From the NCBI GenBank assembly GCA_000165345.1, contig CM000434.1, positions 352,001-416,000 of the forward strand: 64,000 nt of DNA, written 5' to 3'. Within the stretch, counting starts at the first letter, position 1, and each line of letters opens with the position of its first letter. The notes beneath the pieces were generated by a model, which was not told the origin of the DNA, did not search any database, and worked only from the letters and a program-made list of their open reading frames with translations. Shown piece by piece: positions 3,682 through 55,700 of the stretch. Made by a program: the position numbers and the translations under genes.

Positions 3682-4557
3682 TTAATTCATGTATCCTGAG
3701 GAAGGCTGCTGCGAATAGCTTCCGTAGTTTTCATCAACATTATAATATTGATTTGTACGGGTGAACTTTTCAACTTGTGTCTCAACATCATTTGTTAATT
3801 CAGTCTCACCAAATGCAGGAGAGAATTCATTTATCGATGGTTCAAAGAGAAGAGCCCATAATAATGCAGTAGAAAAAGATGTTAAGGCAAATAGAGTCGC
3901 TCCAGTGCATTTAAAAGTGGTTGCATGCAACAATAAAGAAGCACCAGATGCTGAAAATGCAAGGAAGTTGATATAGCCATATGAGTTTCCTACGCCCTCA
4001 TCTTGGAATAGCTCTAACAGCAAAAATCCAAGACCGTACGACACAAATGCAATACCACACAATATTTGTCCGAAAGTTAAGAAATTAATCTCAACACCTC
4101 CTTGGGCAACTGCCATGTTGAATGCGGACTCTAAATCAGTGCTACCACCAAGTTGCATTGTAAATACAAAACCGATAGTCTTTCCAATGAAGTCTAAGAG
4201 AGTCGCAATTTTTATTATCTTTGATCCGGTCACATATCCTCTTGCAAAACATGTGTCATCTGCAAGCAATAGCTGGAATGACATTAAATGAAGAGAACCC
4301 ATAATTCCCAAGAAGAAGCAAAATGAAATATATTTCGGAGCATTTCCTTGGACCAAAATTTCTCCTAGTGAGTGGTAATTGAAGCTGAGCTGGTTTGTAT
4401 AGTTGTAACTTATCATTGTAAGCCCAAGATAACACATTAGCTCGAATAGCAATCCCATACGGAGCAGAGTATTAAACATGCCTTCAATTGGAATGCTTGG
4501 ACCTTGCTTAGTTGCTATTCCTGTATCTACATTCTCAACTCGTGTTGATAGCCACAT
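3682..4557 (-). CDS. Hypothetical multi-pass (about 6 TM) membrane protein with a Tyr/Gln/Ser/Gly-rich C-terminal tail. The ORF-track start at 4563 is TTG; the first ATG is at 4557.
   Basis: Long ORF with six hydrophobic segments of about 20-25 aa. The C-terminal tail is 'NQYYNVDENYGSYSQQPSSGYMN'. I do not recognise a family. Confidence 0.4.
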   Translation of the reverse strand: MWLSTRVENVDTGIATKQGPSIPIEGMFNTLLRMGLLFELMCYLGLTMISYNYTNQLSFNYHSLGEILVQGNAPKYISFCFFLGIMGSLHLMSFQLLLADDTCFARGYVTGSKIIKIATLLDFIGKTIGFVFTMQLGGSTDLESAFNMAVAQGGVEINFLTFGQILCGIAFVSYGLGFLLLELFQDEGVGNSYGYINFLAFSASGASLLLHATTFKCTGATLFALTSFSTALLWALLFEPSINEFSPAFGETELTNDVETQVEKFTRTNQYYNVDENYGSYSQQPSSGYMN

Positions 4558-7751: not shown

Positions 7752-9383
7752 ATGGTCTACCAAAAAATTAGAATAGTCAAGTTCTGCACATTAATAGGTG
7801 CTGCTGGAGTTGGTATTTACTTTGGATGGAAATTATTTAAAAAAGGAAAGGTTTGCTCCATGATCAAAGAAATTTACTCTAAAAACAAAAAAGATAAAAA
7901 AGAGCATTCATTTGAAGATTATTACAATTTTAACAAAGATAAATCAAATGAAGTTGGATCAAATGAATGCGAAGCAGTAAGCTCTTCAGGACTGATTATT
8001 AGGGCAGTAAATAACCTTAATATTCAGCCAGAAGAGGGTTTTGTTCCCGGAGTTGCAAAAATAATGGTAAAAAATTTTGGTTGTAATCACAATCGAAGCG
8101 ACTCTGAAAGTATGATGGGGCTTCTTTCTGAATATGGATACACTTTAGTGGAGGAATTAGACGAATGTAATTTAATAGTAATTAACAGTTGTACAGTCAA
8201 AGGGCCAAGCCAAGATTCGTGCCAAAATTTAATAGAGTTAGCAAAATCGAAAAGAAAATTTGTGGTTGTAACAGGATGCGTTCCGCAAGCAGATATAAAC
8301 TTGAACTTCTTAAAAGATGTTTCTATCATCGGCGTCAGAAATATTCATCGAATAGTTGAGGTTGTAGAATTAACTTTACAGGGGAACATTGTTTTACTGA
8401 TTCCAGATAAAATGGAAGGAAAATCAGGTCAATTAATAGATTCTCTTGAAATTAGTTTGCCTCCATTATCACTACCAAAGATTCGTCGCAATCCTTTCGT
8501 TGAAATAATTACTATTTCTGTTGGTTGCTTGGGAAATTGTACCTATTGCAAAACTAAGCACTCCAGGGGCGATTTGGGCAGCTATCCTGTTGAAACTATC
8601 ATTCAAAGAATCAATCAAAGTCTAAACGAGGGTGTAAAGCAATTTTGGCTGACTTCGGAAGACATTGGGGCATACGGAAAAGATATTGGCACAAATTTAT
8701 CCGAGTTATTGAGAGAAATATTGAAAATTCTACCACAGGACATAATGATTAGGATAGGGATGACAAACCCACCATACATTTTAGATCAAATTGATGAAAT
8801 AATTGATATTATGAAGCACCCCAATGTATTTGAATTTTTGCATATTCCTGTTCAAAGTGGTAGTAACAGGATTCTGGACTTGATGAAAAGGGACTATGTT
8901 ATAGAGGAATTTAGTTTACTAGTTGATTCAATACTAAAAGAAATTCCACTAGCAACTATTGCTACTGACATTATCTGTGGATTCCCCGGAGAAAGCGACC
9001 AAGACCACTTTCAATCTGTCGAATTAATTAATAAATACAAGTTTCCGGTAATAAATATTTCAAAATTCTATCCAAGACCAGGAACTCCCGCTGCAAAAAT
9101 GAAACCTGTACCAAATGGAGTTTCAAAAAGCAGAAGCTCCGAGATTACAAATACTTTTCAGTCTTTTAATCACAACGAATATATATTTGAAAATTTGCCA
9201 GATGATAAAGTTGTCAAGGTGTGGTTTATTGAACACTCTGAAAGAAGCAATCATACAGTTGGACACACAAAAAACTATAATAAAGTATTAGTTAATATGG
9301 ATAACAATCTATTGGGAAAATGCGCAATGGTTAAACTAATCAAACCTTATAAATGGCACATAGAAGGCATCGTTATCAGTTGA
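7752..9383 (+). CDS. CDKAL1-type radical-SAM methylthiotransferase (tRNA ms2t6A37; MiaB/RimO superfamily) with an N-terminal TM anchor
   Basis: MTTase N-domain 'VPGVAKIMVKNFGCNHNRSDSESMMGLLSEYGYTLV' aligns to CDKAL1 '[36 protein letters not shown]'. The radical-SAM Cys triad is 'CLGNCTYCKTKHSRG', matching the CxxxCxxC motif. The length also allows a C-terminal TRAM-like region. Confidence 0.85.
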   Translation: MVYQKIRIVKFCTLIGAAGVGIYFGWKLFKKGKVCSMIKEIYSKNKKDKKEHSFEDYYNFNKDKSNEVGSNECEAVSSSGLIIRAVNNLNIQPEEGFVPGVAKIMVKNFGCNHNRSDSESMMGLLSEYGYTLVEELDECNLIVINSCTVKGPSQDSCQNLIELAKSKRKFVVVTGCVPQADINLNFLKDVSIIGVRNIHRIVEVVELTLQGNIVLLIPDKMEGKSGQLIDSLEISLPPLSLPKIRRNPFVEIITISVGCLGNCTYCKTKHSRGDLGSYPVETIIQRINQSLNEGVKQFWLTSEDIGAYGKDIGTNLSELLREILKILPQDIMIRIGMTNPPYILDQIDEIIDIMKHPNVFEFLHIPVQSGSNRILDLMKRDYVIEEFSLLVDSILKEIPLATIATDIICGFPGESDQDHFQSVELINKYKFPVINISKFYPRPGTPAAKMKPVPNGVSKSRSSEITNTFQSFNHNEYIFENLPDDKVVKVWFIEHSERSNHTVGHTKNYNKVLVNMDNNLLGKCAMVKLIKPYKWHIEGIVIS

Positions 9384-9401: not shown

Positions 9402-11609
9402 TTATGTATCGATTTGTTTTCTCTTTTTTTTGTTAATTGCTTTGTAACTTTCTTCTAATAATCTTTCTGATAAGTTTTTTATTTTGCAGAATTTGTAACT
9501 CACATTAATTAGCTTTTGACAATTGGGCTCTAAACCAGGATCGTAGTCTTTATTTAATGTATTTTTTGACAAATTATTCCGAGAGAGGCTATTCAAAAAA
9601 TCTTTAGCACTTTGCAGAACGTCATTCCAGATGAAATTAGCCATTTTATTTATATTCATTAATTCAAATCGTTTTTTTAGTGATTGCAACAGAGTAACAT
9701 CCTTTTTTTTAATAATTACTCCATCGTAATTAGGTTTTGACCCATTTTTAAAGTCGTGACCAATAAACGCTCTTGCGTAGTCGATGTTACTTCTTTTAAT
9801 TATATCAACAATATTTTCAGTTTTCCACGTAGAGTAATACCTGGAAGTAAACATAACTTTATCGTTATTAAGACCCTCACAAGAATCTTTTATATGAACA
9901 CATGAATTAGGTATATTTCCTTTAATAGAAATATTTATTGACTTAAAATGATCTTTTGGAATTTGATCAAGGTGGTTCAACTCCGCCAAAGGTTTAATCT
10001 GCGTCTGAAATTCTGCATAGTATTCTAGCTTCACTTTGCCCTTTAAGTCAACGTCATCATTTTTCTTTTTGAAGATAATTTTTATTGGTTGCTGACCAAT
10101 CTTAATTTCGCGTTGTTCTTGATCCCACTGAGTCCTAGTCTTTAACGTTTGGACATTTTCTCTAAGATAAATTGGCTCGCCCTGAAAATATCCAACAATA
10201 GGCTCCTTTGGATGAATGATTTCTAAAGAATTAAGACATGAAATAATGGCGTATTTTGGATGGTTTTTGAAAGATGTTTTTGAAATAGGAATTACATCAT
10301 TTTCGTGTATAATTTTTTCCAATTCGAAATCATCTAATAATTCCAATTTAAGCAGCCTAGAGCTATACTGATTGGAAGTGGAATTTATTGTTGATATTAT
10401 TGACTCAACCTTTTGTTTAAATGAATTCTTCTGTTGAGCTTGAAACACTTGAGACCAGTCTGATACATATCTTCCAGTGGTTTCTCTTAAATACCCATAC
10501 TCATTAACAGATATAATCCACCATCCAATGCTCTCATTAATCTTATGTTTAATATTTGTCCTTGAGATATCGATTTTGCACTGTAATTGAGTGAGTGTTA
10601 ATGATTCTGTTTTCTTTTTATTTGAAAATTCAAATGCTAAGGACTCTCTTTGTTCATCTTGCTCAGCAATATTACTCGTTTCATATTTGACTGATCTTTG
10701 TCTAGTTTCAGTTTTTTTTAAGGGAATAACTGATATGGGTGTTATTTTTTTAAGACTTAAGCTTTTGTCTGAGTCATCAGAGTCATCATTAAATTCACTT
10801 AAGAATAGTTTTGAAAACAATCCCTTATCGCTATTGTGTTCAATTGAAGAAATATTTTTTTCTGGATAAGTTACAAACGGAACTGTAGAACATCCTGTGA
10901 AGTTCCACCCCCCACGATGAATATCGACTGAAATCCACTTGTTGAACTTTGGTTCGAAGACCTCAACCCAAAGCTCAGCTCTCCTATCGTTGCATTGCAA
11001 TTCACAACTTTTTTTAAAGTTAATAATAGGAGGAATAAATAACGTTAGGCGGCAATGATGACCTAGCGATCGGACCAGGGCAGCAAAAAGAATGTTACTG
11101 GCCTCAGCACTACATTTTCCAGATAAAATAGAACTGATCATTCTTCCGAGAATTTTACCAAGAAAGAAACTACGTTGATCTATCAGAGGTGCGAATTGTC
11201 TGTATATTTCCTGAAATTTTTCAAGAAAATTATTCTCGACTCTTCCAATTGTATTATACATTACTCCATTTAAGCATGGGGCAAAATCTTTACCTTCATT
11301 TAAAAATAAAGAATAGTATGCACCCATCCAATTTGATTTCGAAAACGCATTGTTAGTCTTCGCTTCAAAATTATGGAGTTTGTAAATCCAATATTCATTT
11401 GGTAAATAATATGTTTTGAAATACTTTCTAAACCACTGATATATTCCTCTAATACTTTTTTGTGTATCATATTCTTGATTATAATATAGGTACAGGGATA
11501 AAATGTGAGATTTAATGAAAATGTTGTCAACAATTCGATTAAGAATTCTTAAGTGGATCAGCCAACCTAAGATATAGACCTGTCTTGCTTCATTTTTGAC
11601 TTTTTGCAT
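9402..11609 (-). CDS. XPC/Rad4 nucleotide-excision-repair damage-recognition protein
   Basis: A transglutaminase-fold segment 'FAALVRSLGHHCRLTLF' is present. The BHD region 'HPKYAIISCLNSLEIIHPKEPIVGYFQGEPIYLRENVQTLKTRTQWDQEQREIKIGQQPIKII' aligns to human XPC 'HPLYALKRHLLKYEAIYPE...[42 protein letters not shown]'. Confidence 0.8.
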   Translation of the reverse strand: MQKVKNEARQVYILGWLIHLRILNRIVDNIFIKSHILSLYLYYNQEYDTQKSIRGIYQWFRKYFKTYYLPNEYWIYKLHNFEAKTNNAFSKSNWMGAYYSLFLNEGKDFAPCLNGVMYNTIGRVENNFLEKFQEIYRQFAPLIDQRSFFLGKILGRMISSILSGKCSAEASNILFAALVRSLGHHCRLTLFIPPIINFKKSCELQCNDRRAELWVEVFEPKFNKWISVDIHRGGWNFTGCSTVPFVTYPEKNISSIEHNSDKGLFSKLFLSEFNDDSDDSDKSLSLKKITPISVIPLKKTETRQRSVKYETSNIAEQDEQRESLAFEFSNKKKTESLTLTQLQCKIDISRTNIKHKINESIGWWIISVNEYGYLRETTGRYVSDWSQVFQAQQKNSFKQKVESIISTINSTSNQYSSRLLKLELLDDFELEKIIHENDVIPISKTSFKNHPKYAIISCLNSLEIIHPKEPIVGYFQGEPIYLRENVQTLKTRTQWDQEQREIKIGQQPIKIIFKKKNDDVDLKGKVKLEYYAEFQTQIKPLAELNHLDQIPKDHFKSINISIKGNIPNSCVHIKDSCEGLNNDKVMFTSRYYSTWKTENIVDIIKRSNIDYARAFIGHDFKNGSKPNYDGVIIKKKDVTLLQSLKKRFELMNINKMANFIWNDVLQSAKDFLNSLSRNNLSKNTLNKDYDPGLEPNCQKLINVSYKFCKIKNLSERLLEESYKAINKKKRKQIDT

Positions 11610-11894: not shown

Positions 11895-13013
11895 TCACAA
11901 CTCCAGAATATTGGAGTCAAAGTCATCATATTGATGAAGAGACTTTCTCCACTGATTTAGTTGATCAGTAAATTGTTTCTGTGGGCACCTTGTATGAGCG
12001 TTTGGAGTTTGAGGATCGTTAGGTTCTCTATCCTCTTTTCTAGGCTTAAGTTTCAAAAAATTCTGATATGCTCTTGTACCCTTTCCAATGGCAATTTGAA
12101 ATAATCTACTAGAAATCCGTTTATTCCAATCAATATTGGAGCTCGCGGTACCATCGATTGATAAATCGTTATTACGACCACTACTGCTAATTTGTGGTGT
12201 TTTCGGAGTTCCTCCCTTCGGAGATTTACTTGTACTATTACTTATCCTTCTAGGAGTACTCAATTGGTTAGTTGTTTTTTTTTGTGCGCACCTCTCATAT
12301 ACGGCATTCTGATTCGTTTCTTTGCCAAGCTTGGGACCTTCGGTTGCAGAAGTACTCGTTTTTGAGTGTTTGATCTTCTTGCATATTTTATCTTCATCAA
12401 CCTGAAGTTCATAGTTGAAATTAATATTTTCGCTATATTCTGAGTTCTCAGTATGATCTTTACTTCTTTTTTTATTAGTGCTAGAATGATTATTTAGTAT
12501 TTGTGGCAAATCCCCGAACACTTTCGGCATATTTAAATTGGCATCTTGTATGAGGCATTTAACTGCCTGATCACTTTTGCTTATATCAGTTAAGCCACCT
12601 GTGAATGTTCCCTCTCCAAATCGAAATTCTTGGCTTTCAATGTTTTGACCCTTTTCGATTGCTTCGAAGTTTTCATTGCTCACTTTACCTAAATACTGAG
12701 GTAAATTCGATATTTCTAATTTAGGTTCAATATTTGTTTCAGCACCATTAATTGTTAAAAACCCTCTATTTGGCATTTTTTCCTTATTTTCTTTAATAGT
12801 TTTTCTGCATTGATATTCGCTTGAGCTATCATTAAGTTTTATATTTTTTTGAAGAAGAGAAGTTAACCCAATAGATTTAGATTCATTTTTTGTATCGCTT
12901 TGAGTATATATCCAGCTATTTGAAGCATCGCTAATACTCAGATCCGCCCATCTCACAGCTCCCCAACCAGGTTTACTCACTACTGTTTTTTCACGAGTAG
13001 AATTCTCAGTCAT
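11895..13013 (-). CDS. Histone mRNA stem-loop binding protein (SLBP) homologue. The SLBP RNA-binding domain is at the C-terminus. The ORF-track TTG at 13016 is replaced by the ATG at 13013.
   Basis: The C-terminal 'RISSRLFQIAIGKGTRAYQNFLKLKPRKEDREPNDPQTPNAHTRCPQKQFTDQLNQWRKSLHQYDD' matches the SLBP RBD of human SLBP '[63 protein letters not shown]'. The spacing of GK.T.AY, TPN, W(R/K)..LH.(W/Y)D is conserved. Confidence 0.65.
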   Translation of the reverse strand: MTENSTREKTVVSKPGWGAVRWADLSISDASNSWIYTQSDTKNESKSIGLTSLLQKNIKLNDSSSEYQCRKTIKENKEKMPNRGFLTINGAETNIEPKLEISNLPQYLGKVSNENFEAIEKGQNIESQEFRFGEGTFTGGLTDISKSDQAVKCLIQDANLNMPKVFGDLPQILNNHSSTNKKRSKDHTENSEYSENINFNYELQVDEDKICKKIKHSKTSTSATEGPKLGKETNQNAVYERCAQKKTTNQLSTPRRISNSTSKSPKGGTPKTPQISSSGRNNDLSIDGTASSNIDWNKRISSRLFQIAIGKGTRAYQNFLKLKPRKEDREPNDPQTPNAHTRCPQKQFTDQLNQWRKSLHQYDDFDSNILEL

Positions 13014-13385
13014 CAATCACAACAGTTCGTCTTATACAATATAGAGGAACAAGAAAATTGAATTTATTATAATTTCAATCTATAAATGTTAAATATTTAT
13101 GTTAAAAATTGTTAAGTATTTGAACTCCACACTATATTCAATTTAATGACATCCTCGCCTTAACTCTCGATTTTTGCGCTTTGGAAGGCCTTGTGTGGGC
13201 ATGCCTGTCAAAATGGGGGTAAATAATACAATAGACGTCAATTGAAGATCTCGAAAACTACAATAAAATTTTTACTTAAATTGAATAAAAATATAAATTA
13301 AAAAATATTTGCAGTTAGAGAACTTATCTACAGAAATAGTATCAGATTAATTAGAGTTATAGTTGGTAAGGTTCTAATTAATTGT

Positions 13386-13967
13386 TTATCGGCGCTGTTT
13401 ACGTGAGCAGTTAACCGAGTTGTCCAATTCACTTCCCTGGCACTGCGATTCAGAGTGGTATGAAATACTTGAACCCACATTTGAGCCAGCTGCAGAAAAC
13501 ATTTCTCCTGAGTGTGCTCCTGTATTTGGAGTAGTGCCTAGCGCCTCTATATCTACAGGAGATGTAACTGAAGATAAGGAGAACCAGCGATCTTTTTCAG
13601 AGAATACATTTGGATTTGATCTACAAGAGCCTCGGTTACCTCCAATACTAGATTTTCTTCCTCCTATACTTCCCGTATTGCTATTATACGTTGCATAGCC
13701 GTCCCAACCTCTTAACATATTTCCAATATCAGTAGTTTGGTTCCAGTAAAATGTCTCAAGTTCATATATTTTTCTTTCAATATCTACCAACTCTTCCTGA
13801 ACCTTCTCTCTTAAAGAAACCATTTCGTTGCTGAGTTTTTTGTGAGGGGACTCCTGGCAGAAATTAGTGGGAATTGAAGAATCTTTATTTAGATAATTAC
13901 TACTTTGATGCGTACCTTGAGATTCATTCGAACTACCTTTTCCTTTATTCTCTGATTTTTGCTTCAT
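13386..13967 (-). CDS. Eaf6/MEAF6 homologue (NuA4/NuA3 histone acetyltransferase complex subunit)
   Basis: The coiled-coil core 'ELVDIERKIYELETFYWNQTTDIGNMLRGWDGY' aligns to MEAF6 '[33 protein letters not shown]'. The size is right for the family and a Ser/Gly-rich tail is present. Confidence 0.6.
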   Translation of the reverse strand: MKQKSENKGKGSSNESQGTHQSSNYLNKDSSIPTNFCQESPHKKLSNEMVSLREKVQEELVDIERKIYELETFYWNQTTDIGNMLRGWDGYATYNSNTGSIGGRKSSIGGNRGSCRSNPNVFSEKDRWFSLSSVTSPVDIEALGTTPNTGAHSGEMFSAAGSNVGSSISYHSESQCQGSELDNSVNCSRKQRR

Positions 13968-14129
13968 TGGCTTTTAATTGAATAAATAATTGTTCAAATT
14001 TACGGTAGCGCTTAAATAATTTTTCTTTCCGATTCTAAATTCCTATTAATGATTTGAAAATGAGGATTTGAACATTAATTGTGATTTATTTAGACAAAAT
14101 ATCGTAGAAAGTTCTTAATATGGTAAAAA

Positions 14130-14939
14130 ATGTCTGAAAGAAAAGTCTTGAATCGATATTTCCCACCAGATTTTGATCCAAAAAAGTTGGAAGAAAGTAA
14201 GAAACTTTTAAAAAAATCAAAACCAAACAGTAGAGGTGGAGGGTACAGAAAAAAGAAACTATTAAATATCAGAATGCTATACCCTTTTACTATTAGATGT
14301 AATGGCTGTGAGGTTTATCACTATGTCGGGACGAAGTTTAATTCAAAGGTAGAGAAGGTACAAAGTGAGTCGTATCTTGGAATACCTATTTGGAGATTTT
14401 ACGGGCGATGTACTCAGTGCGGAAATGAAATAGTCTTTAAAACAGATCCAAAATCAGGAGACTATATACTTGAGTCAGGAGCTAAACAAAATTTTAATAT
14501 GAACAATAAAGAAGTTGTAAAAAAAAAATCTGAAGACGACTTCGAAAGTAAAGTCATTAATTCCGTATTAGAATCCAGATCTATGGAGGAGCTTGAAATA
14601 CTGAAGAACCTAAATAAGAGACTAATGAACAGAGAAGCAACTGAATTGAATGCTTTAAAGCATATTCTTGATGAAAACGAAATTATACCTGAAGACCAAT
14701 TCATCACTCCAACAGATAATAAATGCAATGAAATTATATCAGATAGAGAAAGACAGCTAATTACAAATAGTGTAAGGAATTGTATTGATTCATATGAAGA
14801 AAACCCTAAATTTCAAAAAAAATTAGGTAGCTGCGTTGTAAACTCAGATGGTTCAAAGAGGCTCAATGCCGCTGTTAAGGTGAAAGAAAAGAATTCAAAA
14901 GATTTATTTTTTAACTACTACGACACTGAATCGGAGTAG
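14130..14939 (+). CDS. Yju2/CWC16 (CCDC94/CCDC130 family) splicing factor
   Basis: The N-terminus 'MSERKVLNRYFPPDFDPKKL' is the signature start of the CWC16 family. The conserved Cys cluster is 'CNGCEVYHYVGTKFN...GRCTQCGNEIVFKTDPKSGDYIL'. Confidence 0.8.
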   Translation: MSERKVLNRYFPPDFDPKKLEESKKLLKKSKPNSRGGGYRKKKLLNIRMLYPFTIRCNGCEVYHYVGTKFNSKVEKVQSESYLGIPIWRFYGRCTQCGNEIVFKTDPKSGDYILESGAKQNFNMNNKEVVKKKSEDDFESKVINSVLESRSMEELEILKNLNKRLMNREATELNALKHILDENEIIPEDQFITPTDNKCNEIISDRERQLITNSVRNCIDSYEENPKFQKKLGSCVVNSDGSKRLNAAVKVKEKNSKDLFFNYYDTESE

Positions 14940-17716: not shown

Positions 17717-19165
17717 TTATGCTTTATATGCTAAGTTATCAAGTAATTTAATTTCTTTAATTGCATTATTTTCCACTTCTGAACCTAGCCAAATAGCTCT
17801 CCTCTTTTTCTTAAGGCCAACATGGCTCTCTTTGTGTGAGAATAAACTAATATTCGATTTTTTCCGATTGACTGGAGATCTGATTGATTGTTTAATTAAC
17901 TCTTCAATATCGCATTCACTTTTCCCTGTATTATCATCTAAATTTTCTTTTTCTAATGAAGCTCTAGAGTCTCTAGATGGCTTTATTTGGTTATCTCTAT
18001 TGTTACAATCATGGCCAAGATTCAATTGGAACTCAGAATGACTATTTATTGGATCATCAAATGCAAGGTGAGTTTCTGGATGAATAAAACCTAAGCAAAT
18101 ATCCTTTGCTACCTTGCCTTGAATAATCGGCCCAATAAAATTTTTCATCTCGTTACATTCAATCAAATTGCCTTGCTTCATTTGGTTATTAAACTCAATA
18201 AATATTGGTACATTATCTAAGGTAACGTTAGTCTCAATTTCGCTTTTAGGCCTGTCACTATTTGAAAGTGGGACCATATTTCCTTCAATAGGGTCATAAA
18301 CTGTTTGGTGGAAGAATGTAATCATTGCATTCTGAACATCAATTGCATAACTTTGTGGTATATCCTTGCCTAAATCCTTAAGTTGTAATATTATCCTTTC
18401 TAAATCTGCATTACATTCTTGCACAAGCTTCATCGCAGTTTTTATCCCCACCCCCTGTGGTGACTTTACATAGTCACAACCAGTCAATATGCACCCTAGT
18501 ACAAAAGTTTCGTATGAGAACATTAATTGTGAAATCACACCACTTTTATACAAATCTTTCCAATATATCACTCTACAGTTACCTGTCTTATCGTCGTATT
18601 TGTAAATTGTACATATGCTTCCAAACACTAGCATATCGCTATCTTCAGTTATCACCGCATCAATATACTTTATTCTTGAAAGATATGAAAGTTGTGCGTC
18701 AGCTTCATACGGAGCAACAATGCATTCTATTTTGTATTCATCTCTTAATACTTCCAAAACCTGGTGAGCTATATTTGGGGTGATATCAAGAGCTTTTTGG
18801 CACAAACTTCTCATATTATATGAACTATAAGACTTTTTTTCGCTTTTTAATCTGATAATTTCTCTCTTTGCATCGCTTCTCCTTTTACTTCTTTCTTCTT
18901 CAGTAACTCTCTTCATAGGAAGAGTGGCACCATCGAACACACAAACCGGAATAAGTCCTTTCCCTTGAAGAGTCCTGATTTTTTCGATACAATAATTAAT
19001 ATGAACTCGAGTAGGTTTGCCTAATACAATACTTTCTGCGCAATTAGCAGCCGATCTATGAAGCCAACCATATGTATCAATTGCTACTCTTTTTCCTTTA
19101 AAGAAGTCGATTTTGCTCTTGATACTTATGTTGTCAACATTAGGTAGTAATCCTTGTATCCCCAT
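17717..19165 (-). CDS. EXO1: Exonuclease 1 (XPG/Rad2-family 5'-3' exonuclease)
   Basis: 'MGIQGLLP...KGKRVAIDTYGWLHRSAANCAESIVLGKPT...LIPVCVFDGATLPMKRVTEEERSKRR' aligns to human EXO1 'MGIQGLLQFIKE...[30 protein letters not shown]...[26 protein letters not shown]'. The I-domain is 'CIVAPYEADAQLSYL...ITEDSDMLVFG'. Confidence 0.85.
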   Translation of the reverse strand: MGIQGLLPNVDNISIKSKIDFFKGKRVAIDTYGWLHRSAANCAESIVLGKPTRVHINYCIEKIRTLQGKGLIPVCVFDGATLPMKRVTEEERSKRRSDAKREIIRLKSEKKSYSSYNMRSLCQKALDITPNIAHQVLEVLRDEYKIECIVAPYEADAQLSYLSRIKYIDAVITEDSDMLVFGSICTIYKYDDKTGNCRVIYWKDLYKSGVISQLMFSYETFVLGCILTGCDYVKSPQGVGIKTAMKLVQECNADLERIILQLKDLGKDIPQSYAIDVQNAMITFFHQTVYDPIEGNMVPLSNSDRPKSEIETNVTLDNVPIFIEFNNQMKQGNLIECNEMKNFIGPIIQGKVAKDICLGFIHPETHLAFDDPINSHSEFQLNLGHDCNNRDNQIKPSRDSRASLEKENLDDNTGKSECDIEELIKQSIRSPVNRKKSNISLFSHKESHVGLKKKRRAIWLGSEVENNAIKEIKLLDNLAYKA

Positions 19166-19288
19166 ATGTTATTTTGGCATTAACAGATAAATTGATATCC
19201 CTCAATAAATTGTTTTCTAAATTGGAATCTAATTCCAATTTAGGCAAACTACCGACAAGGCCCCACAAATTTTATTCATTGCCGCTTT

Positions 19289-19296: not shown

Positions 19297-19879
19297 AATA
19301 AGCTAGAACAAAATATGGAAAAATAGGTCAATTTAGCTTTAAGTAACAATATACTCTCTGCGCTTAATTATGAATACCTTGCTAAAAATAGTAAAAATCA
19401 GATATACTTGTGATTATATACATCATTTACAACAATTCAAATTTTAATCTTTTCATATAAAAATAAACTACTCGTCATTTTGCGCTAAGACTTTTTTTTA
19501 ATTTAGAAAACATGTTTTGACTAATTAATATTTAGAATTTAGATGTCTCAGACGGTGCCCTGCGCGCCACAGTAGACACGATATTATAAAGCAAGAGGGG
19601 CAAGGTATAAGTGGCTCGATTATGTTACTTGCTGACTTGTAAGGAGGTAATAAAATATCGGTTTTCTATCATCGCCGCGTATGGAAGCTCGTAAAACCAT
19701 TTTTATAAGAAACACATTTAATCATCATTTTTTTTAAAGATTTAATATTTGGAGAGGCTGATCTGTGGTGAGAGTCAGGTTCCAAAGGTCCACTCATAGA
19801 AGGCTTGCTTCTTATTTTGAAACAAGTGAAGTGTCACCTTCATATTCACTTCTAAAGGACTTCACAGGAACTTTCAAAA

Positions 19880-23410
<3,531 letters not shown>

Positions 23411-43148: not shown

Positions 43149-44906
43149 TTACACTAAATCTATCGGTTCTATTTCATCCATTCTCTCTCCATTCCTAATC
43201 AATAGTGTTTTTTTTTTATCAGGGGATTCTACTCTCAATTTATAAATTGAATTTCTTTTTAAGTTACACACTGTATCTACCTTGCATCTCGGGCAATATG
43301 GATTTAAGTAGCCATTTATGCTATATATACGTTCATTGCATGATTTGCATAACCAAGATTCTTTTATTGCGTTTTGGTTGAATATTATCGATTCTGGATG
43401 TTCATCTTTACAAATGAGATTTGCATTACCCTCTGTCCAAATACCGCATTTTTTACATCTTACTGCATTGCAAATTTTGACTGAATTGATATTTCTTTTA
43501 AGCTCAGTCGTTTTATCTGCATCTTCTAACTCCAATAGTTTTTTTCTAAGTTGATTAGACTCCAATTTTTGAATTGTGTCATCACAAGATGTATTTAGTG
43601 ACACAACTTGGTCAATCTTAGAAAAAATACTATTAAAGTTTGAGTTTTGTTTTCCACTATTCTGCTTCACACCTGTTAAACTTCCCAACAATAAATTTCT
43701 TTCTTTATTCTCTCCCTTTGAAATTTTATCTTCGAAAGATGAGATCTTTTTATACATATCTTTCCAGTTTACATCTAAATGGGCTTCTGGAACTCGAAAA
43801 TTTTCATTTTTTTCGGGTATTTCGATTTTTATCCTTGGCCAGTATCCTTTACTATTACAGAGCTTATGCCTAACTCTCAAGGCAAATATTGCAGTCTCAA
43901 TTTCCATGGTTTTTAGTTCTAGATTTGAAATGGAGTGAATAATTCCACTTTTTATTATGACATCAAGGGATGTGCTAAAAGTATCGAAGTTTGACAGATA
44001 TCTCAGAATGCTTAGTACTTCGCTATTATTATTTTCTTTAATTGCTTTATTTAACTTGCCATTAAGATCAAAAATTTCGCGTTTACTCGATGTATCTTCA
44101 TCAAGATCAGTCCAAACGCGTTTTAATTGACTAGTATTAGGATGCTCAAATCCATTAAGGTTGGATTTTACTAACCTTCTAAATTTCATCTTATTTTCTT
44201 TCGAAATATGTTTCAACAAATCTGTTCTTTTACTTTCTATTTCTCCATCGCATGAAGGCTTATTATCATTTTGCAAGGTTGAAGGATATACTAATCGATT
44301 TTCATTTGATTTTTTTTTTAGATTTTCTATTGTCTTGGAAGAAATATGATGTTTACATAATTGCCCTTGATAGTTGGAATCGATAGGATTTGTGCATAAT
44401 GTTCCATTTTTATTTACCCCTTTACAAATAGAGAATCCATTAACTTTACCTACTTTGATAATTTGACTTAATTTTGAAATGCTTAAATAACTTTTAAAAT
44501 TTTTCCCATCAGAAGTAATTATTGACGGGTTAATGATTAGATATAAATATCCAATCAATTCATTTTGAAATTGTTCGAATACTTCTCCGAAGAGATATAA
44601 CCTGCATTTGCTACCTTTTAGATCAGTGATATTCCATATAGTATATCTTTTATTAATTTCATCATTCGAGTAATTTAAATCATCTGAAATTGAATAAAAC
44701 ACGATAAATACGTAACTAAAATTAAAATTATCTTTAGAAGTTGTACTGATTTGATCTAATCCAGATAACTTTAACAAACTCCCATTTTCAATCAACTTTT
44801 TCAACCTAACTTTTGGAATTAAAATATTTTCTAGAAATAGAGATGAATTCTCTTCAAATATTCGAGTATTTTTTTTCAAATTTTTTTCAATTTCTTCCAT
44901 AAACAT
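43149..44906 (-). CDS. Mcm10 homologue (OB-fold plus zinc finger internal domain, with a C-terminal zinc motif)
   Basis: The internal domain 'YTIWNITDLKGSKCRLYLFGEVFEQFQNELIGYLYLIINPSII...LSISKLSQIIKVGKVNGFSICKGVNKNGTLCTNPIDSNYQGQLCKHHIS' follows the Mcm10 OB-fold/CCCH pattern ('lFLFG.a...W....G.V.aiLNP.i....LSi........G...DfG.C.a.kk.G..C...vn......C.yH'). The C-terminus has two CxxC pairs ('CKKCGIW...CKSCNER...CPRCK'). Confidence 0.6.
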   Translation of the reverse strand: MFMEEIEKNLKKNTRIFEENSSLFLENILIPKVRLKKLIENGSLLKLSGLDQISTTSKDNFNFSYVFIVFYSISDDLNYSNDEINKRYTIWNITDLKGSKCRLYLFGEVFEQFQNELIGYLYLIINPSIITSDGKNFKSYLSISKLSQIIKVGKVNGFSICKGVNKNGTLCTNPIDSNYQGQLCKHHISSKTIENLKKKSNENRLVYPSTLQNDNKPSCDGEIESKRTDLLKHISKENKMKFRRLVKSNLNGFEHPNTSQLKRVWTDLDEDTSSKREIFDLNGKLNKAIKENNNSEVLSILRYLSNFDTFSTSLDVIIKSGIIHSISNLELKTMEIETAIFALRVRHKLCNSKGYWPRIKIEIPEKNENFRVPEAHLDVNWKDMYKKISSFEDKISKGENKERNLLLGSLTGVKQNSGKQNSNFNSIFSKIDQVVSLNTSCDDTIQKLESNQLRKKLLELEDADKTTELKRNINSVKICNAVRCKKCGIWTEGNANLICKDEHPESIIFNQNAIKESWLCKSCNERIYSINGYLNPYCPRCKVDTVCNLKRNSIYKLRVESPDKKKTLLIRNGERMDEIEPIDLV

Positions 44907-46796: not shown

Positions 46797-49700
46797 TTAT
46801 AGCCACGGCATCCATGTTGGCTTCATGGCAGAAAGGTTTTTAGGATCCGTAGAACATTCTATCAGCTCAAGTACACTTCTGTCAATGAGTTGACTATTTT
46901 CATTGATTGGCCTAGGATTAGTTAATACTGCTATTTTCTCCATCATCCTGCGAACATTTCTATCTACTTTCTCCCTAATTTCAACGTTAGAAAGTAATCT
47001 TTGCTGCATTATCTGGGAAATTGTGTTCTGAGAATGGTCATTTGCTGTGTTGGGCGAGTTTATGACTGTTTGCGAACTATTATCAAAGTCCGATTCTACG
47101 GAAGGGTTATTTGGTTTTTGATATAAATTACGATTTTGAGGGATCTGTAAAGCTCTATGGACAGAAAATGCATGCAAATCGTCTCTAAGCAGGGAGCAGA
47201 GTAAATTTCTTACGTGAAACTCATATTTTTGTAGACATTGAGCAAATGCGAGCATAGTACCTGGAAGGATACCATTCTTACCGAAGGGACCCATTAAATG
47301 TTCCATATTTCTTGTTAACCTAAAAGGAACCTTTTCAGTTTTATCAATAAGCAGTGTGGATGAGACATAAGAGGATTTTAATTCTGATTGATAAACCTGC
47401 CCAGTATCCAACGAAATAAATAGTTTTCCGGGAGTAACATCATTTACACCTAGAATATATGAAAATATTGACAGTAAACCCAAGTGAGTAGTAAACTGTT
47501 TAGTGAATAAAAATGATTGGTCATGCGAGTTGAACTTTCTTAAAATACTTCTTTTAAAGATATTATCTGGGACCCAGTTATCACACAGCTCAGTATAAAT
47601 TTTTAGCATTTCCTTATCAAGTTGTGAATTATTTATATTATTCAACTTCCTGAGTGAGATATTGATAAGCTTTCTATGAAGTAATATCGGGAAGTCAAGG
47701 TCTTTTATTGGGCATGTACAGTTACTGCTATTCGCTTCCTCTTCAAAAAGTTCGGTAAAGCTCTTCTTATTTCCTGTATCTTCAATGATACGGCAACGTG
47801 GATGCAATGGTATACAAGGTTGTATTGCAAAAGAAATATTTCTGGACCTGGTTTCCTTATATTTATATAAAAGTGTATTTAGTGTAACTTGAAGATGAAG
47901 AATGCGTTCCTCAACCTTTTGTTGAAGCCCACTATATGGCTGAATTAAGAAGTGTATAGTACTTCCACTAGAAGTGATAAATCCTATTCTTTTCAGTGTG
48001 TATGATTGTCTTACAACCGTTTCAACTGTAGGCAATGATCTATGTAGGTATATAACACCACCAATCGGATTATTACTATTTGTGTTTTCTAAAACAGCAA
48101 AATTTCTTAAGTAGAGACTTTCAGAGACAATTCTCAAATATTGTCCAGGAACTTCCAAACGAATATTGATTCTATGGAATAGATCGCAGAGAGTAGTTGA
48201 GAAATCCGATAACAGAGACTTTCCTCTGATATTTTCATTTGAATACCTTTCTGTACATTTAGTAAAGTGATCTTTCCACTTCTTGAGCTTTTCCAAGACA
48301 TAGTCGAGTTTTAATTGTGAAACCCTTTCAATAGGAGGGTTTGTGTTATTACATAGATAAACATGAAAGTCATTTTTAAATTCGTTCCAATATTGTTTGA
48401 TAATGTTCTTAGATCTTTCGAAAGATTTATTATTCAAGGATGAAGACTTATTCAATAACTGCTCGTACCTTCTAATGATATTGTGTTCCAAAAAGTGTGT
48501 TCCTATATTTGGGAAAATGTCGGATGCTTTTGTATCACTCAAATTCGAATCTTGAACAATGATTGATTCATCATTAATGGGGGAGATTTCAATTGTCATT
48601 TGGAATAATGTACGTATTGCACATAAGAGTTCATCAAGTGGGTCAGGTTTACAGTGTAGTACAATGTCTTCAACCCAGTGTTCAAGAGCTAAAGTTAGTG
48701 CGCCGTGTCTAATTCTACAAGTATTCATCAGTGATTCAATTCTTTGCCATCCCAAAGAAATAAAACTTGGATAAATTCCAGAAGAAGGCGGAGGAGGAGG
48801 ACCCTGGCTTGTATTTTCAGTTTCAGAATTAGAGGATAAATACCAATACATGTGAGCCATTTCTCTTTTTTCAAGATAGCTACTTCTAATATTAAAATAA
48901 ATACTTTGTGGGAATATTAACACAATCTTGTTTAAAATATGCAAAATAGCACTTCCTTCAATTCTATCTATTCCAGCTATCAATTGAGGAATCCATGGAA
49001 GCCAAACAGCGCAAGGTAAATGATCCGAATATTTTTTAAATGCTAATGAGAGATATTTTCCATCAGGAGAGTCATGTGGCAATAACCAAAGTACCCTTGA
49101 AAGTAAAATAGAGTATTTATCTGGCCTTAAATATATTCCCATTAAGTAAGAGATTACTGCATTAACTGCATAACTCATGTTTTGGTGTATATATAATAGC
49201 CTATCAGTATATTGAGCCCAAGTGATCCATCCTCTTGCGAATAGTGGATATACCTTTAAAGAAGAAAGTAAGTCTGCATTAACACGAACAACTGAAGTAC
49301 TAATACCTGTAGCAGACGTATTATTTAAACCAGGGTGTCCTTGTTCTGAGTTTAATACATTGCTTCCTGTTACAGAGTTTGCATTATTTGGAATTTCGCC
49401 ATCAATATAATAATTAGGATATAATTTATTTGAAATAATCCCCTTTAACCTCAGAAATTCTGCCCTGTATTCATCAAAATAAGGTTCCGGGCATTTTTGG
49501 AAATCAGTCATATTAAGGATATTTAGGCCAGTTCTTAATTGAGTAGTATCAGATAAGCAAAGCTTAACTTTTTCCAAAGTCGCGAGAAATGTTTCTGCCC
49601 TATATGCATCTCCTCCTGAAACCTGTAAATGATTTTGTAATCTCTGTAGCAATGCAACCGAGACCTCTGGTAAACGATGGGATTTCCTCGCAATTGATGC

Positions 49701-52700
49701 GAATTTTATCATTGTCCAGGGCATATCCTGCAAATAACTTGGCCAAAGAGATTTTGCTTGAGAAGTTAAATGGTCTGACCTACTAATTAGATTCATAATG
49801 ATAGAGAAAACAAAGTTTCTCCATACAAAAAGATCGTTCCATAATATCATACTGTCCCACTTATTAGGCAATCTATCTCTCCATACATTCAACATTCTGG
49901 CCTCAAAATAACCTGGCGTTGAGTTGCTTGTATTCTGAAGGTTCGAATGTGAGTTAATATTTACATGGGAATTTGGATTCCCTGTATTAATTGATTGTGA
50001 GCTTTGAGCAAGATTATTTGCATTTGAGTGATGAATAATATAGTTTGAACCAAAATTTGCAGTATTCTGAACAATATTACCGTTTAAGGAGTGATTAATA
50101 TTGCTATTTGGACCATCTGGGTAAAGTTTTCTTTCTATATCTGATGAGAGTCTGAAGCCTTCTTGCAGCTCTATATATTGCTGGAAATTTAACAGTAGAG
50201 GAACATGACATGTAGTTACTACGCTTGGTAGCATAGCCCAAAAATTTAGCACAGTTCTATAGCCAATTGAACAGTGGCGTTCAAATTCGGCTAGTTTTGA
50301 TCTCGAACTATTTTGAATTATGCTTTGTGAAAACTGCTGGCAGTAAGCACCATTATTTAAGTTTTGACTATTTGTTGAATTATTTACTCGATTCTGGTTA
50401 CTTATATTAGTACTAGAGTTAGACAGCGATTCTTGAGTTCCCTTACTTTGCAAATTCCAATTGTTATTAATTCCTCCTAATAGCAAGTCATATAAAGAAT
50501 GATATGCTTGACATAACTTTGTAATAGGGTTATGCAGAATATACTTGTTGACTAGTTTCTCCACTAAAACCCAATCTTGTAGTTTTGATGAGCATTCCAA
50601 TTGAAGTTGAGGGTTTCTGCGCTCCTTAGCAAACTCGTTTAGGGTATTCCATTGATTTAGATGCTTTGCGCAAGCAACCCAACTATCTATCCAAATCATT
50701 GTTTCATTATTTAATAGTGATGAATCAGAGTTTTCAAAAATTCTTGCCCAATTTAGAATATTATGGCTACAATCTGCATTACTATTAGTAGCTTTAGAAC
50801 TTGAATTATATATTGCATCAAGGTTATTGTAAAATATTTCCTGTGCTTTACTCCACTCCGCCTGCTGCATTAGCGCTAATCCCATATGGGTTTCGAGACA
50901 ATTGGAAAATGACCTTCTAATGCCAATTACAATGTCTTCTTCTTGTAATTCCCCATAAATTTGTGCCAATATCATCCAAGAACTATCGGGTCCATCATCT
51001 TGAACTAAGTTATTTTTAAAATCATGATTACAATTCACTTTAGAAATAAAGTTATTTTCTTTCTTATTAATGTTTGCTTGGGAGTTACTCGTATTAATCT
51101 GGTTACTTAAATAGTTAGATGCAATATGCCAACATCTTAATTTCGTTGATAAATGCAAAAGCAAAGTTGCCGGTAAAATAGGTGGATTGTCACATGATAG
51201 TAGGGAATCAAGTATAACATGCGGTATTGTCCATTCAGAAGGCATTGCTGAACTCACTCTATGATGTCTTTCTTTAGAAAGCAATTCAATAATATCAAGC
51301 GTTAATTCATTTCTTTGTTGGTGCTCCAAGTTATTCCAAATCCACGGAAAAATAGTTTTCCAAAGAGAGATTGAAATGGATTCGCTTGTACTTGAGAAGA
51401 ACAATAAAGAGTCGATTGCTAAACCTGGATTCCGTTTCAGGTTCCCAATAACATCATCTAATAAATCGAATTTCACTTGCCCAGCTACAAAATTATTATG
51501 CTGTGGTCTGTTAATTAGCGAAGAATTAGATTGATCGCTACTTGAGCTGTCTAGTATGCAAATCAAAGATATATCACTACTAGTGCTCGCATTGTCATCT
51601 TCATAATTCTCTTTTAATTTTAAATTTTGTAGTTCCCACCATTCTAATTCTACTTCTGTTAAGTTAGTCTTAAAATCATTTGTCTTAAATGATTGATAGC
51701 TTTCATTTGAGGATTTATCTAATTTATTAATAATTTGTTGCTCTATTGAGGGAAGAATAGATGGGAATGCTCCCATTTTATTGCTGATGATTGAACTTTT
51801 TTCACTAAAAGTCATTGTAGGCATTAGCAATTCTAGAAATTGAGTTATATAGAATCTCTCTGCAAGCACATCAAAATTTGATGTTGTGAATAAATATCGA
51901 AGCCTACCGAACAAATCTTTTGGCAGCTTTTCATTAAACCATTTTAGAAATCCAAGTTTTATTTTTGGATGAGGCGAAGCCAAACCTAAAAGTGCGCATT
52001 TCTCAAGTTGAGTCAGTGCCTTTTCTGTAAAGACAAAGGTATTAGCTTGTTTAAGAACAATATTGTTAGAAGAGCCTTCGATTTTTGCTTTGAGATTTCC
52101 CTCATAATTTAAAATAATTTTCAGAATTTCATCCTCGTGATTATTTAGAATTTCCTCCAAAAACGAATGGTATATTAGATGCATTTCAAATCTACGATTT
52201 CTATCGCATATTAAAGACCATCCTGTCAAAAGCGTAATCACTAACTCGTATTTCAAAACTTTAATAGAAGTCTCATCAGTTTTGTTTTTGTAATCTAAAT
52301 TCGAATAGAATTTTAATATTTCATCTAAATTATACACTTTAATTCTTCTCTTTCCCTCAAAATCATTCTCGACCGATTCATTCGAATCAACTATCAAAGA
52401 GTTGCAAACAAACAAATTTGAACCTTCTTCTACCTCAATTTCTAGCTTCTCCGATAAATAACTATTGATATTCAACTGATGATTAAATATCCATCGTCCA
52501 AGAATACTCATTAATAGATGAACAATCCCACCTTGAAATGTTATCAATCCAAAATCTCTCAGTAGAACAATAATATGTTGTCTAAAAACATTGCTATTTA
52601 AGCTTTTCATTGTAAAATATGGTGAAATCAAAATTAGTTGAAACAAGTCCGCACAGTTATTTAGTATAGAAGTATTTGATCCATTCAAATGTTGTAGTGC

Positions 52701-55700
52701 ATTAGAGACCGTATGATTTAGATTTTGAGTGTTTGATCTTGAGGTTGAAATATTCGTGTTTTTATTAGCATTTGATATGTTTGATTTTCCGGATAAAGCG
52801 CTCGGCTGTAAGCTGTTTAAATTCTGCGAGTTAGAACTACTATAATAAGCGAGAGCCTTATCCAAAACATATATTATTAATGGAGAAAAGTATCTGAGAA
52901 ACATAACAGCAATTTCTGTTGTTTCTTCTTGAGATTTATGGACATCTTGTTCGTTCAAGGCAATACCCAAGACCATAAACGATGAAATAATTTTGATAGA
53001 AGTATGAAGCGAGATATTTCTTCCAGAACAATTCGTAGTTTGCTCTGAGTATTGTAGAAGATTCGAATTATCATTTGTTGTAGTCTGGTTATTTGATGTA
53101 ACTTTGGCTGGGAATAGTTCTGGTAACACCGATAATTCTTGATTTACTAGGGACCAAATACCAGAAGTTGAAATATCAATTAATCTAATATAGAATGAAT
53201 CTATTTTGTTATCTACTGTTAATTTTTTTGACAGAGGAACCTTGAAGTTGTCAACATAATTATAATCCAATTCTCTAGGCTGGCGATCACTATTTTGAAT
53301 ATTTTCTTCATTAGAATATATAAAATTTACAATTTTTGTTATAGAGTCTTTTAGTTGCGTCGAAGGATGAGGGATTATTTGAATTATCTTACAAATTAAC
53401 ACATATAGAGCTTCAGAGACATTCTTATCATTTGAAACAAAAGCAGGCTCAAGAATTTGTAGAATTGAATCTAATTGCATGATTATTGTGGCAGAGGTTT
53501 GATGGATGCAGAAAACCTGAAGCCCTGCGATAAGTGTCAATTGAAAAGCAATGAGGTTTGGCGAAATAGTTTGATGCTGACTGTTTAGCCCTTGGCTATT
53601 AGTACTCGGATTCTGTGAAATATTGGATCTGGTAGAGCTAGAAATCGATGATAAATGAGAATTATTACTTAAATTAAAACCTATATCCAACCAACTGATT
53701 TGTACTTTGCAATTTGGATAAATTAAAATAATTTTCGATATAGTGCTGAATGATTTTGAAACGATCTTGTGGTCACTACTAGATGCCAATAAAGCAAGCC
53801 TAAACCAAATTGTTATAACTAAATCAATAATTGAGACGGAAGATGTTTCATCTTCAATTTTTAATAATTCTGCAAGTTGCGGAATTGATGAAATATCAAT
53901 AGTTGCATTTGCAACATTTCTATATTCTTTACCAACTCCTGAACATATACTTTGGTTGTTTTTTTCATCTTTACTAATTGAATGGGATATCCTTCTTCTT
54001 TTTAATTCCAAGTTATCATCAGAATCGATACAATGACTCGAAACTCCTATATTCACTTCAGCATCAAAATTACACACCCAATTAGTGATTACAATTAATA
54101 TACCAAAAATCATTCTTTTCATTTCAGGTAGGAAGGGAATATTCAAAATATTATTTGAAGGGAATGCAGATTGACCAAAGTTGTTCGTCATACCAGAGTT
54201 GCTGCCTGCATAGGATGAACTTGTAGATTGAGAGCTATTTTGACCAACTGAACCAAACCCCCATAGTAATTTGGTTAAAGTTGATAAAACTGGAGAAAGA
54301 AGATAAATATATTCAAATGCAAATATATTAGGGCGAAGTGTGATAATATTCCAGTGATACAATTGTTGTTGTAAAGGCAAATTATAACTATCTTGAATTA
54401 GTATTGCAATCATCAACCTAAGCCAGTTAGAAAATAGCGTTTCAGGGGTTTTGTCTTTAATAAATAGTTTAGGAGGTGAAGGTATTAGAGAAAATAAGCT
54501 TTTATCACTTTCATTTTCTGGTGAAAAAATATTTAGTGTATCATCTTTGATGATCGGTTTGATATTGTGCAAAAGTGGAATAAATAAATTCAGAGCTCTT
54601 CGAACAGTAAGTCTAACTTCAGAAACTCCATAAAGCCTTGTAAGAGCTACCAACATTGAAAACAAAATCTTCTCTGGAAAAGGATATTTTTCTACAAAGT
54701 AACACATAGTAATGTAGCCCCAAGACTTGAGCAAAGAAGATTCAGTTCTCAAAATATTCCAAACATCCTTTATAAGTCTTTTTCTGTTATTGGATATTGT
54801 TTCTAGAGAGTATTTATTCTTCACAAGTAAAATAAGAAGTTTAAGTATCTCTATTTTAAGAGGATCATCTGTTGCAGAAAGTCCATTGGTTCCATGTAAT
54901 GGGATTACATTTCTTTCCAAACTTGGAAGTATTATTCTGGTTATTATACCTTCACAAATATAGTCATTTAACCATGAATCTTCACTATGACGAATTTTCT
55001 CATTGTTTCTATTGAATTCGTATTCTAACAGTGGAATCAGTATAAGCTGTATACATGCAATTTGAGTACCAGGTAGAATTGAAGATGTATCTATATTAGG
55101 TCCACTTGGATAATATCTTTGAATGAGTTGGTTAAAAAGTAAACGCTTTTCTTGATTTGAAAGAGTTTTTGGAACTGTACAAATAAGGAAATCGCGAAAA
55201 GCACCACTATCAAGAGTTGAACTTGTACCAAAAAGAGTAGCAATTGTCAAAATAACGTCAATCCTTCTTCTTTTCAAATGTTCTTTTACATCTTGCCCGT
55301 GAATAATTGTCGAGAGCAATGATATAATTAATTCTTTAGATGGGTAAATTGGTTGATTATTTAAGGTAGAGTTTGATGTTGAGCTAATTGAATTGTGAGA
55401 ATTATTTGCGTGCAAAGATGAATTCAAATTGTTATTAGAATTCTGTATATTCTGCCTCATCTGGTGTGAAGTAAACGAAAAGCTATTAGAAAATGTTTGA
55501 TCTTCAGTTAAATTTTGCCTCTGAAAAGATGAGGTAGAAGATTGAGAAAAGTTGGTAATCGATGAGGTATTTGAAGGAAGGCTAACTGCTGAATATAATA
55601 CACTTTTCATTGAATTCTGGACGGATAAAATATCGTTAATAATTTCGTCGCCCACCCTGTTACCATAGCATTTTTTTTCAAGGTATTCCTTATTTTGTAC

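Follow-up and report, generated by a model that had tools for sequence, protein, structure and literature searches.

An intact stem-loop-binding protein gene in Cryptosporidium parvum and histone-type 3′ stem-loops in its apicomplexan relatives

The stretch of DNA under study (the window) comprises 64,000 nucleotides of NCBI GenBank assembly GCA_000165345.1 (contig CM000434.1, positions 352,001 to 416,000 of the forward strand), corresponds to part of chromosome 6 of Cryptosporidium parvum, and displays a base composition of approximately 30% G+C with a dense array of long, uninterrupted open reading frames (ORFs). All positions given below without further specification are those of the window. 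The gene of interest, which encodes a homolog of the histone stem-loop-binding protein (SLBP), is a complete, single-exon coding sequence on the minus strand (11895..13013), specifying 372 amino acids from an ATG at 13013 to a stop codon at 11895-11897, as supported by the ORF list and by an exact sequence match. The corresponding minus-strand ORF runs without interruption from 13016 to 11895; the TTG at 13016 (window positions 13014-13016) was rejected as the start, being an artifact of bacterial start-codon rules; the true initiation codon in this eukaryote is the next one, the ATG at 13013. An in-frame stop codon is present three codons upstream of this ATG. The 372-amino-acid product is 100% identical to the C. 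parvum Iowa II record EAK89827.1/CAD98699.1, designated a “possible histone mRNA hairpin-binding protein,” and the gene is located at approximately 361 kb of chromosome 6 in CP029785.1 and BX526834.1. As the product is a named public record, neither the gene nor its interpretation is new, and the existing gene call is confirmed. An earlier note, compiled from the sequence alone, had recognized an SLBP homolog in an apicomplexan-like genome; this identification is correct, as is evident from the Pfam match detailed below and from the exact C. parvum record, yet the protein had been annotated previously, and the family is documented across alveolates.

The RNA-binding domain occupies residues 295-365 (11919..12131, minus strand) and contains the motifs GKGTRAY, DPQTPN, and WRKSLHQYD. 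The sole Pfam-A family detected in the protein by hmmscan was PF15247 (SLBP_RNA_bind; E = 2.6e-18), which aligned with residues 298-365 across positions 3-70 of the 70-position profile. The score of 66.2 bits is well above the curated gathering cut-off of 27, which settled in favor of the earlier note the profile search it had put forward. Consistent with this assignment, the PDB entries retrieved by phmmer were exclusively SLBP RNA-binding domains, i.e., those of Drosophila (4tux, 4tv0, and 4tuw; E of approximately 2e-8) and human (4l8r, at 1e-4, and also 4qoz), and, judged on these scores, the domain match is far beyond chance. The signature originally noted (GK.T.AY ... TPN ... W(R/K)..LH.YD) is indeed present and represents the conserved core of the family, as established by alignment with the human and fly proteins and 36 diverse homologs, in which human, fly, and protist SLBPs have GK.T..Y, DP.TP, and W[RK]..LH.[YW]D in common, while the tyrosine of the animal “I[ND]YGK” is replaced by isoleucine, valine, or leucine in most protist sequences. 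Core residues which are invariant across the genus in the alignment of Cryptosporidium orthologs (K311, T313, Y316, T336-P-N, W355, L359, H360, and D363) align with human K146, T148, Y151, T171-P-N, W190, L194, H195, and D198. The T336-P-N element (12000..12008, minus strand), invariant in all Cryptosporidium orthologs, aligns with the TPNK motif of human and fly SLBP, of which it represents the counterpart; the threonine of TPNK is phosphorylated in animal SLBP. The Cryptosporidium protein thus shares with metazoan SLBP a domain of approximately 70 amino acids (PF15247) with GK.T.AY, TPN, and W(R/K)..LH.(Y/W)D. AlphaFold2 (based on a 14-sequence alignment) conforms to the three-helix pattern of this domain no more than roughly, placing putative helices at residues 296-309, 314-321, and 344-361 at low-to-moderate confidence (domain predicted local distance difference test [pLDDT] values of 54-77). 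The protein differs from its metazoan counterparts in that identity across the domain amounts to only approximately 35-40%, in that Tyr144 and R180/R181 correspond to Ile and Gln-Lys, respectively, and in that no similarity outside the domain was detectable, with PDB and Pfam returning nothing for the N terminus.

Orthologs were identified in 13 Cryptosporidium clusters, which include C. hominis, C. meleagridis, C. ubiquitum, C. canis, C. felis, C. xiaoi, C. ryanae, C. serpentis, and C. andersoni, among others. All of these homologs carry PF15247, and the majority have already been named hairpin-binding proteins. When identity to C. parvum was measured by region across the 13 clusters, gastric species included, the RNA-binding domain (residues 295-365) displayed 82-100% identity and an N-terminal block (residues 17-56) 65-100%, while the linker between them (residues 57-294), rich in Ser, Asn, and Lys, ranged from 96% down to 21%. 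The ORF is intact in every Cryptosporidium lineage sampled, and its length is nearly constant (367-379 amino acids, with 432 in gastric species). This regional distribution of identity is the pattern of a functional protein, namely, two constrained modules joined by a disordered, fast-evolving spacer. The notion that the ORF arose by chance, or that it represents a decaying pseudogene resembling SLBP, could draw on the low complexity of the protein's middle portion and on nothing more; it is refuted by the Pfam E value, by the intact ORF in all lineages, and by the domain-specific conservation, and its probability is considered negligible. The gene is intact, single-exon, and under purifying selection, and the RNA-binding domain which it specifies is bona fide SLBP.

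When 1.84 billion cluster representatives were searched by phmmer with the domain as query, 958 clusters were returned at E <= 1e-3. The best matches outside Cryptosporidium are 40-50% identical across the domain, and the named proteins among them, as well as two Logan relatives, pass the Pfam threshold at 73-83 bits. The named proteins are those of Plasmodium vinckei (CAD2103177.1, “RNA-binding protein, putative”; Pfam domain at residues 438-503 of 506), Theileria equi (BEWA_017530; 256-322 of 324), Besnoitia besnoiti (BESB_070750; 510-575 of 650), and Cystoisospora suis (“histone hairpin-binding protein”; 629-694 of 833). The location of the domain at the extreme C terminus of the C. parvum protein had been regarded as atypical; because the domain lies at or near the C terminus in all four of these genera (most evidently in Plasmodium and Theileria), such placement is the rule in the phylum rather than an oddity. 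In Drosophila SLBP, too, the domain is close to the C terminus with a short acidic tail beyond it, as in the Cryptosporidium protein. Apicomplexan SLBPs therefore have in common a Pfam-positive domain at or near the C terminus, a set of N-terminal motifs, and “IA[IV]GK” in place of the animal “I[ND]YGK,” while they differ in their modest domain identity and in a linker of highly variable length, with proteins ranging from 324 to >1000 amino acids.

The conserved N-terminal block (residues 17-56, W-GAVRWADLSISDASNSW...NESKSIGLTSLLQK; 12846..12965, minus strand) harbors three short motifs which are common to apicomplexan SLBPs. The first, [GS][VI]-R-W-[AV]-D-[LIM] followed by ..S, shows no variation at R, W, or D among the nine aligned sequences, and the second and third, in that order, are [NHS]-S-[WYF]-[LIV] and [ED][ND]-S-x-x-G-[LIM]. 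The sequences compared with that of C. parvum (P0342, P0343, P0345, P0339, P0341, P0351, P0354, and P0337) include those of Plasmodium, Besnoitia, and Cystoisospora and four more homologs (three of them from Logan) of piroplasm-, coccidian-, or unknown-type appearance; R-W-[AV]-D is present in apicomplexan homologs whose N terminus is intact. The description of the protein outside its domain as long and Ser/Asn/Lys-rich thus holds for the linker, while the N-terminal part is not merely low in complexity, as its motifs are conserved across the Apicomplexa. The N-terminal 67 amino acids returned no match in PDB or Pfam. Given their conservation, these motifs likely represent docking sites for partner proteins, and their occurrence throughout the family, which may be considered mildly new, could guide the identification of such partners. 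A SLIP1-binding motif, D/S-W-A-x-x-V-E-E, was reportedly described in animal SLBP, eIF3g, and DBP5 by von Moeller et al. in 2013, and the apicomplexan [GS]-[VI]-R-W-A-D-[LIM]-S-S-[DE] appears to resemble it. If the N-terminal motif were to dock an adaptor of the MIF4G type, which is a tentative and rather doubtful suggestion, SLBP would have been tied to translation initiation before animals and alveolates diverged, and the apicomplexan histone mRNA pathway would constitute a form of the animal pathway that operates independently of U7 and depends on CPSF3; this would be of relevance since anticryptosporidial benzoxaboroles target CPSF3. At the opposite end of the protein, a short acidic tail (F/DSNILEL; 11898..11918, minus strand) resembles, by alignment, the start of a coccidian C-terminal motif. 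Among the C termini compared (P0343, P0345, P0339, P0341, P0351, and P0357), coccidian SLBPs possess an extension ending in ILEFNRECELAGL (...ILEFN(R/K)(E/D)CE(L/M)AGL), of which Cryptosporidium retains only “...NILEL” directly after the domain. The coccidian extension may be a lineage-specific module. The Plasmodium and Theileria SLBPs stop at the end of the domain and are devoid of a C-terminal extension.

The presumed RNA partner of such a protein was sought 3′ of the histone genes of relatives, in all cases with a single hairpin scanner (GG-initiated 6-bp stem with a 4-nt loop). A near-identical histone-type stem-loop, GGYTTC-WCTM-GAAGCC, was found 3′ of H2A/H3 genes in Cyclospora, Plasmodium, Hepatocystis, and Cardiosporidium. 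In Cyclospora, it occurs at +99 after the stop codon of H2A (tttaGGCTTCtctaGAAGCCacc) and at +136 after that of the adjacent, divergently oriented H3 gene (tttaGGCTTCactaGAAGCCacc), both elements being of the GGCTTC-(t/a)cta-GAAGCC-ACC type. H2A of Plasmodium of the P. falciparum group (Laverania) is followed at +553/+559 by GGTTTCactaGAAGCC, i.e., GGTTTC-acta-GAAGCC (positions 3953-3968 of locus L024 and 3959-3974 of locus L025), and the same 16-mer, GGTTTCactaGAAGCC, lies at +610 after H2A of Hepatocystis (approximately 4013-4028 of locus L147). In Cardiosporidium, the element GGCTTCactcGAAGCC (GGCTTC-actc-GAAGCC) is located at +240 after an H2AX gene. Hairpins of different sequence (GGCGTT-tttt/tctc-RRCGCC) were observed at +55 after H2A (GGCGTTttttGGCGCC) and at +42 after H3 (GGCGTTtctcAACGCC) of Perkinsus, whose histone mRNAs have been reviewed as possessing 3′ stem-loops (PMC6723414). 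Simple arithmetic predicts approximately 1e-9 chance matches per position for the degenerate 16-mer pattern, against a background, on each strand, of approximately 6 perfect GG-initiated 6-bp/4-nt hairpins per 64 kb irrespective of their sequence; on these figures, chance cannot account for a 16-mer that recurs in four genera of Apicomplexa and in every instance lies 3′ of a histone gene. A metagenome scan for GGYTTCWCTAGAAGCC yielded 120 stretches, nearly all of them chance matches, with a weak upstream histone motif in only 2.

Aligned with the Rfam model RF00032 (Histone3), the Cyclospora elements span it from end to end and score 26.9 and 26.0 bits (E = 6e-5 and 1e-4; positions 10485-10530, plus strand, and 8981-9026, minus strand, of locus L019), and the Plasmodium element scores 15.8 bits. 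As the gathering score of RF00032 is 34 bits and the apicomplexan stem-loops reach 16-27, default Rfam scans miss them, and empty scans are uninformative. The apicomplexan elements agree with the model in their 6-bp stem starting with GG, their 4-nt loop, and their A/C-rich 3′ flank, and they differ from it in a loop of WCUM rather than UUUC/UUUA and in scoring below the gathering threshold. This consensus, GGYUUC-WCUM-GAAGCC, which standard Rfam thresholds overlook, is likewise mildly new, as is the combination, in Plasmodium, of a histone hairpin with the protein listed as “RNA-binding protein, putative.” Plasmodium has both an H2A hairpin and a Pfam-positive SLBP-domain protein, the latter annotated only under that generic name, and malaria parasites therefore seem to possess both halves of the system. 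The earlier statement that a stem-loop pathway is not established for these parasites thus does not hold: apart from the stem-loops 3′ of H2A/H3 in four other apicomplexan genera, public C. parvum and C. hominis records already bear the name “histone mRNA hairpin-binding protein,” and canonical histone mRNAs of Toxoplasma are treated in the literature as being without poly(A).

Based on the combined protein and RNA evidence, it is proposed, and considered probable, that C. parvum SLBP binds a histone 3′ stem-loop of the apicomplexan type and couples 3′-end formation, translation, and S-phase stability of histone mRNAs. In the suggested sequence of events, the SLBP domain would bind the 16-nt stem-loop GGYUUC-WCUM-GAAGCC in the 3′ untranslated region (UTR) of replication-dependent H2A, H2B, H3, and H4 mRNAs, and the bound mRNA would be marked for cleavage just after the loop by a factor containing CPSF73/CPSF3. 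SLBP binding would also promote export, translation, and S-phase-restricted stability of histone mRNAs, and the N-terminal motifs would provide docking sites for partner proteins.

The principal alternative is a trypanosome-like mode, in which SLBP binds the stem-loop of histone mRNAs that are still polyadenylated, as are those of trypanosomes, and acts on translation and stability only, e.g., through a bridge to a cap-binding factor, such that no poly(A)-less end is formed. According to a 2008 survey, U7 snRNA (small nuclear RNA), Lsm10, and Lsm11 are reportedly not known outside animals, which may be counted in favor of this mode, and the conserved N-terminal motifs, suggestive of protein-protein docking, are equally in keeping with it. 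Precedent is provided by Trypanosoma brucei SLBP2, which binds a histone 3′ UTR stem-loop and directly contacts eIF4E2 (reviewed in PMC7139794). T. brucei SLBP1 and SLBP2 are, like the apicomplexan proteins, protist SLBP-domain proteins which bind a stem-loop in histone 3′ UTRs; compared by description only, they differ in that TbSLBP2 has a central eIF4E2-binding segment not present in other SLBPs (PMC7139794). In Plasmodium and Hepatocystis, the hairpin lies 550-610 nt beyond the stop codon, which may be cited for this mode; the long spacing in Plasmodium is compatible with either view. Against it, canonical histone transcripts of Toxoplasma are under-represented in poly(A)-selected RNA-seq libraries and are treated as non-polyadenylated, and mutations in CPSF3 raise their poly(A)+ signal (PMC7854901 and PMC7733022, both of which cite Davila Lopez & Samuelsson 2008); the depletion and the CPSF3 effect together argue that, in one apicomplexan at least, these transcripts end mainly without poly(A). 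Furthermore, agreement of the Cyclospora elements with Histone3 extends over the entire model and takes in the ACC which precedes the cleavage site in animals. A role confined to polyadenylated transcripts is, on balance, regarded as unlikely.

Several observations weigh against the proposed coupling of SLBP to histone 3′-end formation in Cryptosporidium. The window contains neither a histone gene nor a histone-type stem-loop: the metazoan consensus GGYYYTTHTHARRRCC, with at most one mismatch, gave 0 matches across the 64 kb against 0.66 expected by chance, and Rfam Histone3 gave none at gathering thresholds in the window or in the histone loci scanned. U7 snRNA, Lsm10/Lsm11, and FLASH were not seen in the window either (Rfam scan, and Pfam on 13 window ORFs). 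The AlphaFold model is of low confidence overall (mean pLDDT of 42.5, with values below 50 outside the domain) and adds no independent support; as the SLBP domain folds on RNA, low model confidence is not unexpected. Moreover, the Arg-Arg pair of animal SLBP (human R180/R181), of which R181 reportedly reads the second G of the stem in a 2013 crystal structure of human SLBP with RNA (the pair acting on the second G-C pair), is Gln-Lys in Cryptosporidium (“CPQKQF”), and base recognition may, therefore, differ in detail. Finally, we infer the Cryptosporidium stem-loop from relatives, on the strength of phylogenetic bracketing (coccidia, haemosporidians, and a perkinsid have it) and of an RNA-binding domain that is close to invariant within the genus; the one histone gene of Cryptosporidium to have been examined encodes a variant, H2B.Z. 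Among six species/strains representing the C. parvum group and gastric species, no GG-initiated 6-bp/4-nt hairpin was present in the 500-600 nt of 3′ flank of the H2B.Z gene, nor was there a match to Histone3 at E <= 10. Because this gene, cgd7_1700, specifies the replication-independent variant H2B.Z (PMC9949044 and PMC3594968), the missing stem-loop is what the proposed model predicts, and the locus serves as a negative control rather than as a test. H2B.Z is a protein of 131 amino acids, near-identical from C. parvum to C. muris, with all members falling in one 90% cluster; its gene lies at 10001-10396 (plus strand) of the full-flank loci, between genes for threonyl-tRNA synthetase (ThrRS) and Rad51. 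Canonical Cryptosporidium histone genes include, besides those for H2A and H4, cgd5_3170, for H2B (PMC6877471), and cgd3_2540 and cgd4_3220, for H3 (PMC12621844). A homology search with Plasmodium H2A placed no Cryptosporidium cluster among the 120 clusters listed, exact look-ups of H3/H4 led to clusters of 700-7000 members with no Cryptosporidium member among those visible, a search of PDB for a Cryptosporidium nucleosome found none, and no paper discussing SLBP in Cryptosporidium was found in the literature library searched.

Alternatively, the domain could have been co-opted for a different RNA, in which case the protein would play no dedicated part in the metabolism of Cryptosporidium histone mRNAs. 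The non-conservation of the base-reading Arg-Arg pair of animal SLBP, the lack of a histone stem-loop in any Cryptosporidium sequence examined, and the annotation of Plasmodium orthologs only as putative RNA-binding proteins are in keeping with this. The pair is, however, also missing in relatives which all pass Pfam, being Lys-Ala in coccidia and Asn-Ala in Plasmodium and absent in Theileria (by alignment), and is, therefore, a feature of animal SLBP and not of the family as Pfam defines it; since apicomplexans without the pair retain canonical-looking histone stem-loops, its absence provides no argument for a different target. The remainder of the RNA-binding signature is invariant, and a stem-loop is not expected at H2B.Z. 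Recruitment to another target thus appears highly improbable, and recognition of a histone stem-loop by SLBP is retained as the preferred interpretation.

Under this preferred interpretation, SLBP and the conserved apicomplexan stem-loop would imply that Cryptosporidium uses a dedicated mRNA 3′-end pathway to tie its histone supply to its rapid cycles of DNA replication. The implied pathway would be dependent on CPSF3, a validated drug target in both Cryptosporidium and Toxoplasma (PMC7733022).

In the window and in the chromosome 6 records alike, the SLBP gene is located between genes for NuA4 Eaf6 (13386-13967, minus strand) and Rad4/XPC (9402-11609, minus strand). Further genes specify a Saf4/Yju2 splicing factor (14127-14936, plus strand), an XPG-family nuclease (17720-19168, minus strand), and MCM10 (43152-44906, minus strand), while histone, Lsm, and CPSF genes are absent from the window. 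As the neighbors are unrelated nuclear housekeeping genes, an operon-like reading of the arrangement was rejected. An eIF4G-like factor of 1184 amino acids (19856-23407, plus strand), with a PAM2 motif at residues 102-118 and a MIF4G domain at residues 703-914, is encoded 7 kb from the SLBP gene, a proximity which is probably coincidental in a eukaryotic genome. The window also harbors a single uninterrupted ORF of 5554 amino acids at 46800-63461 on the minus strand.

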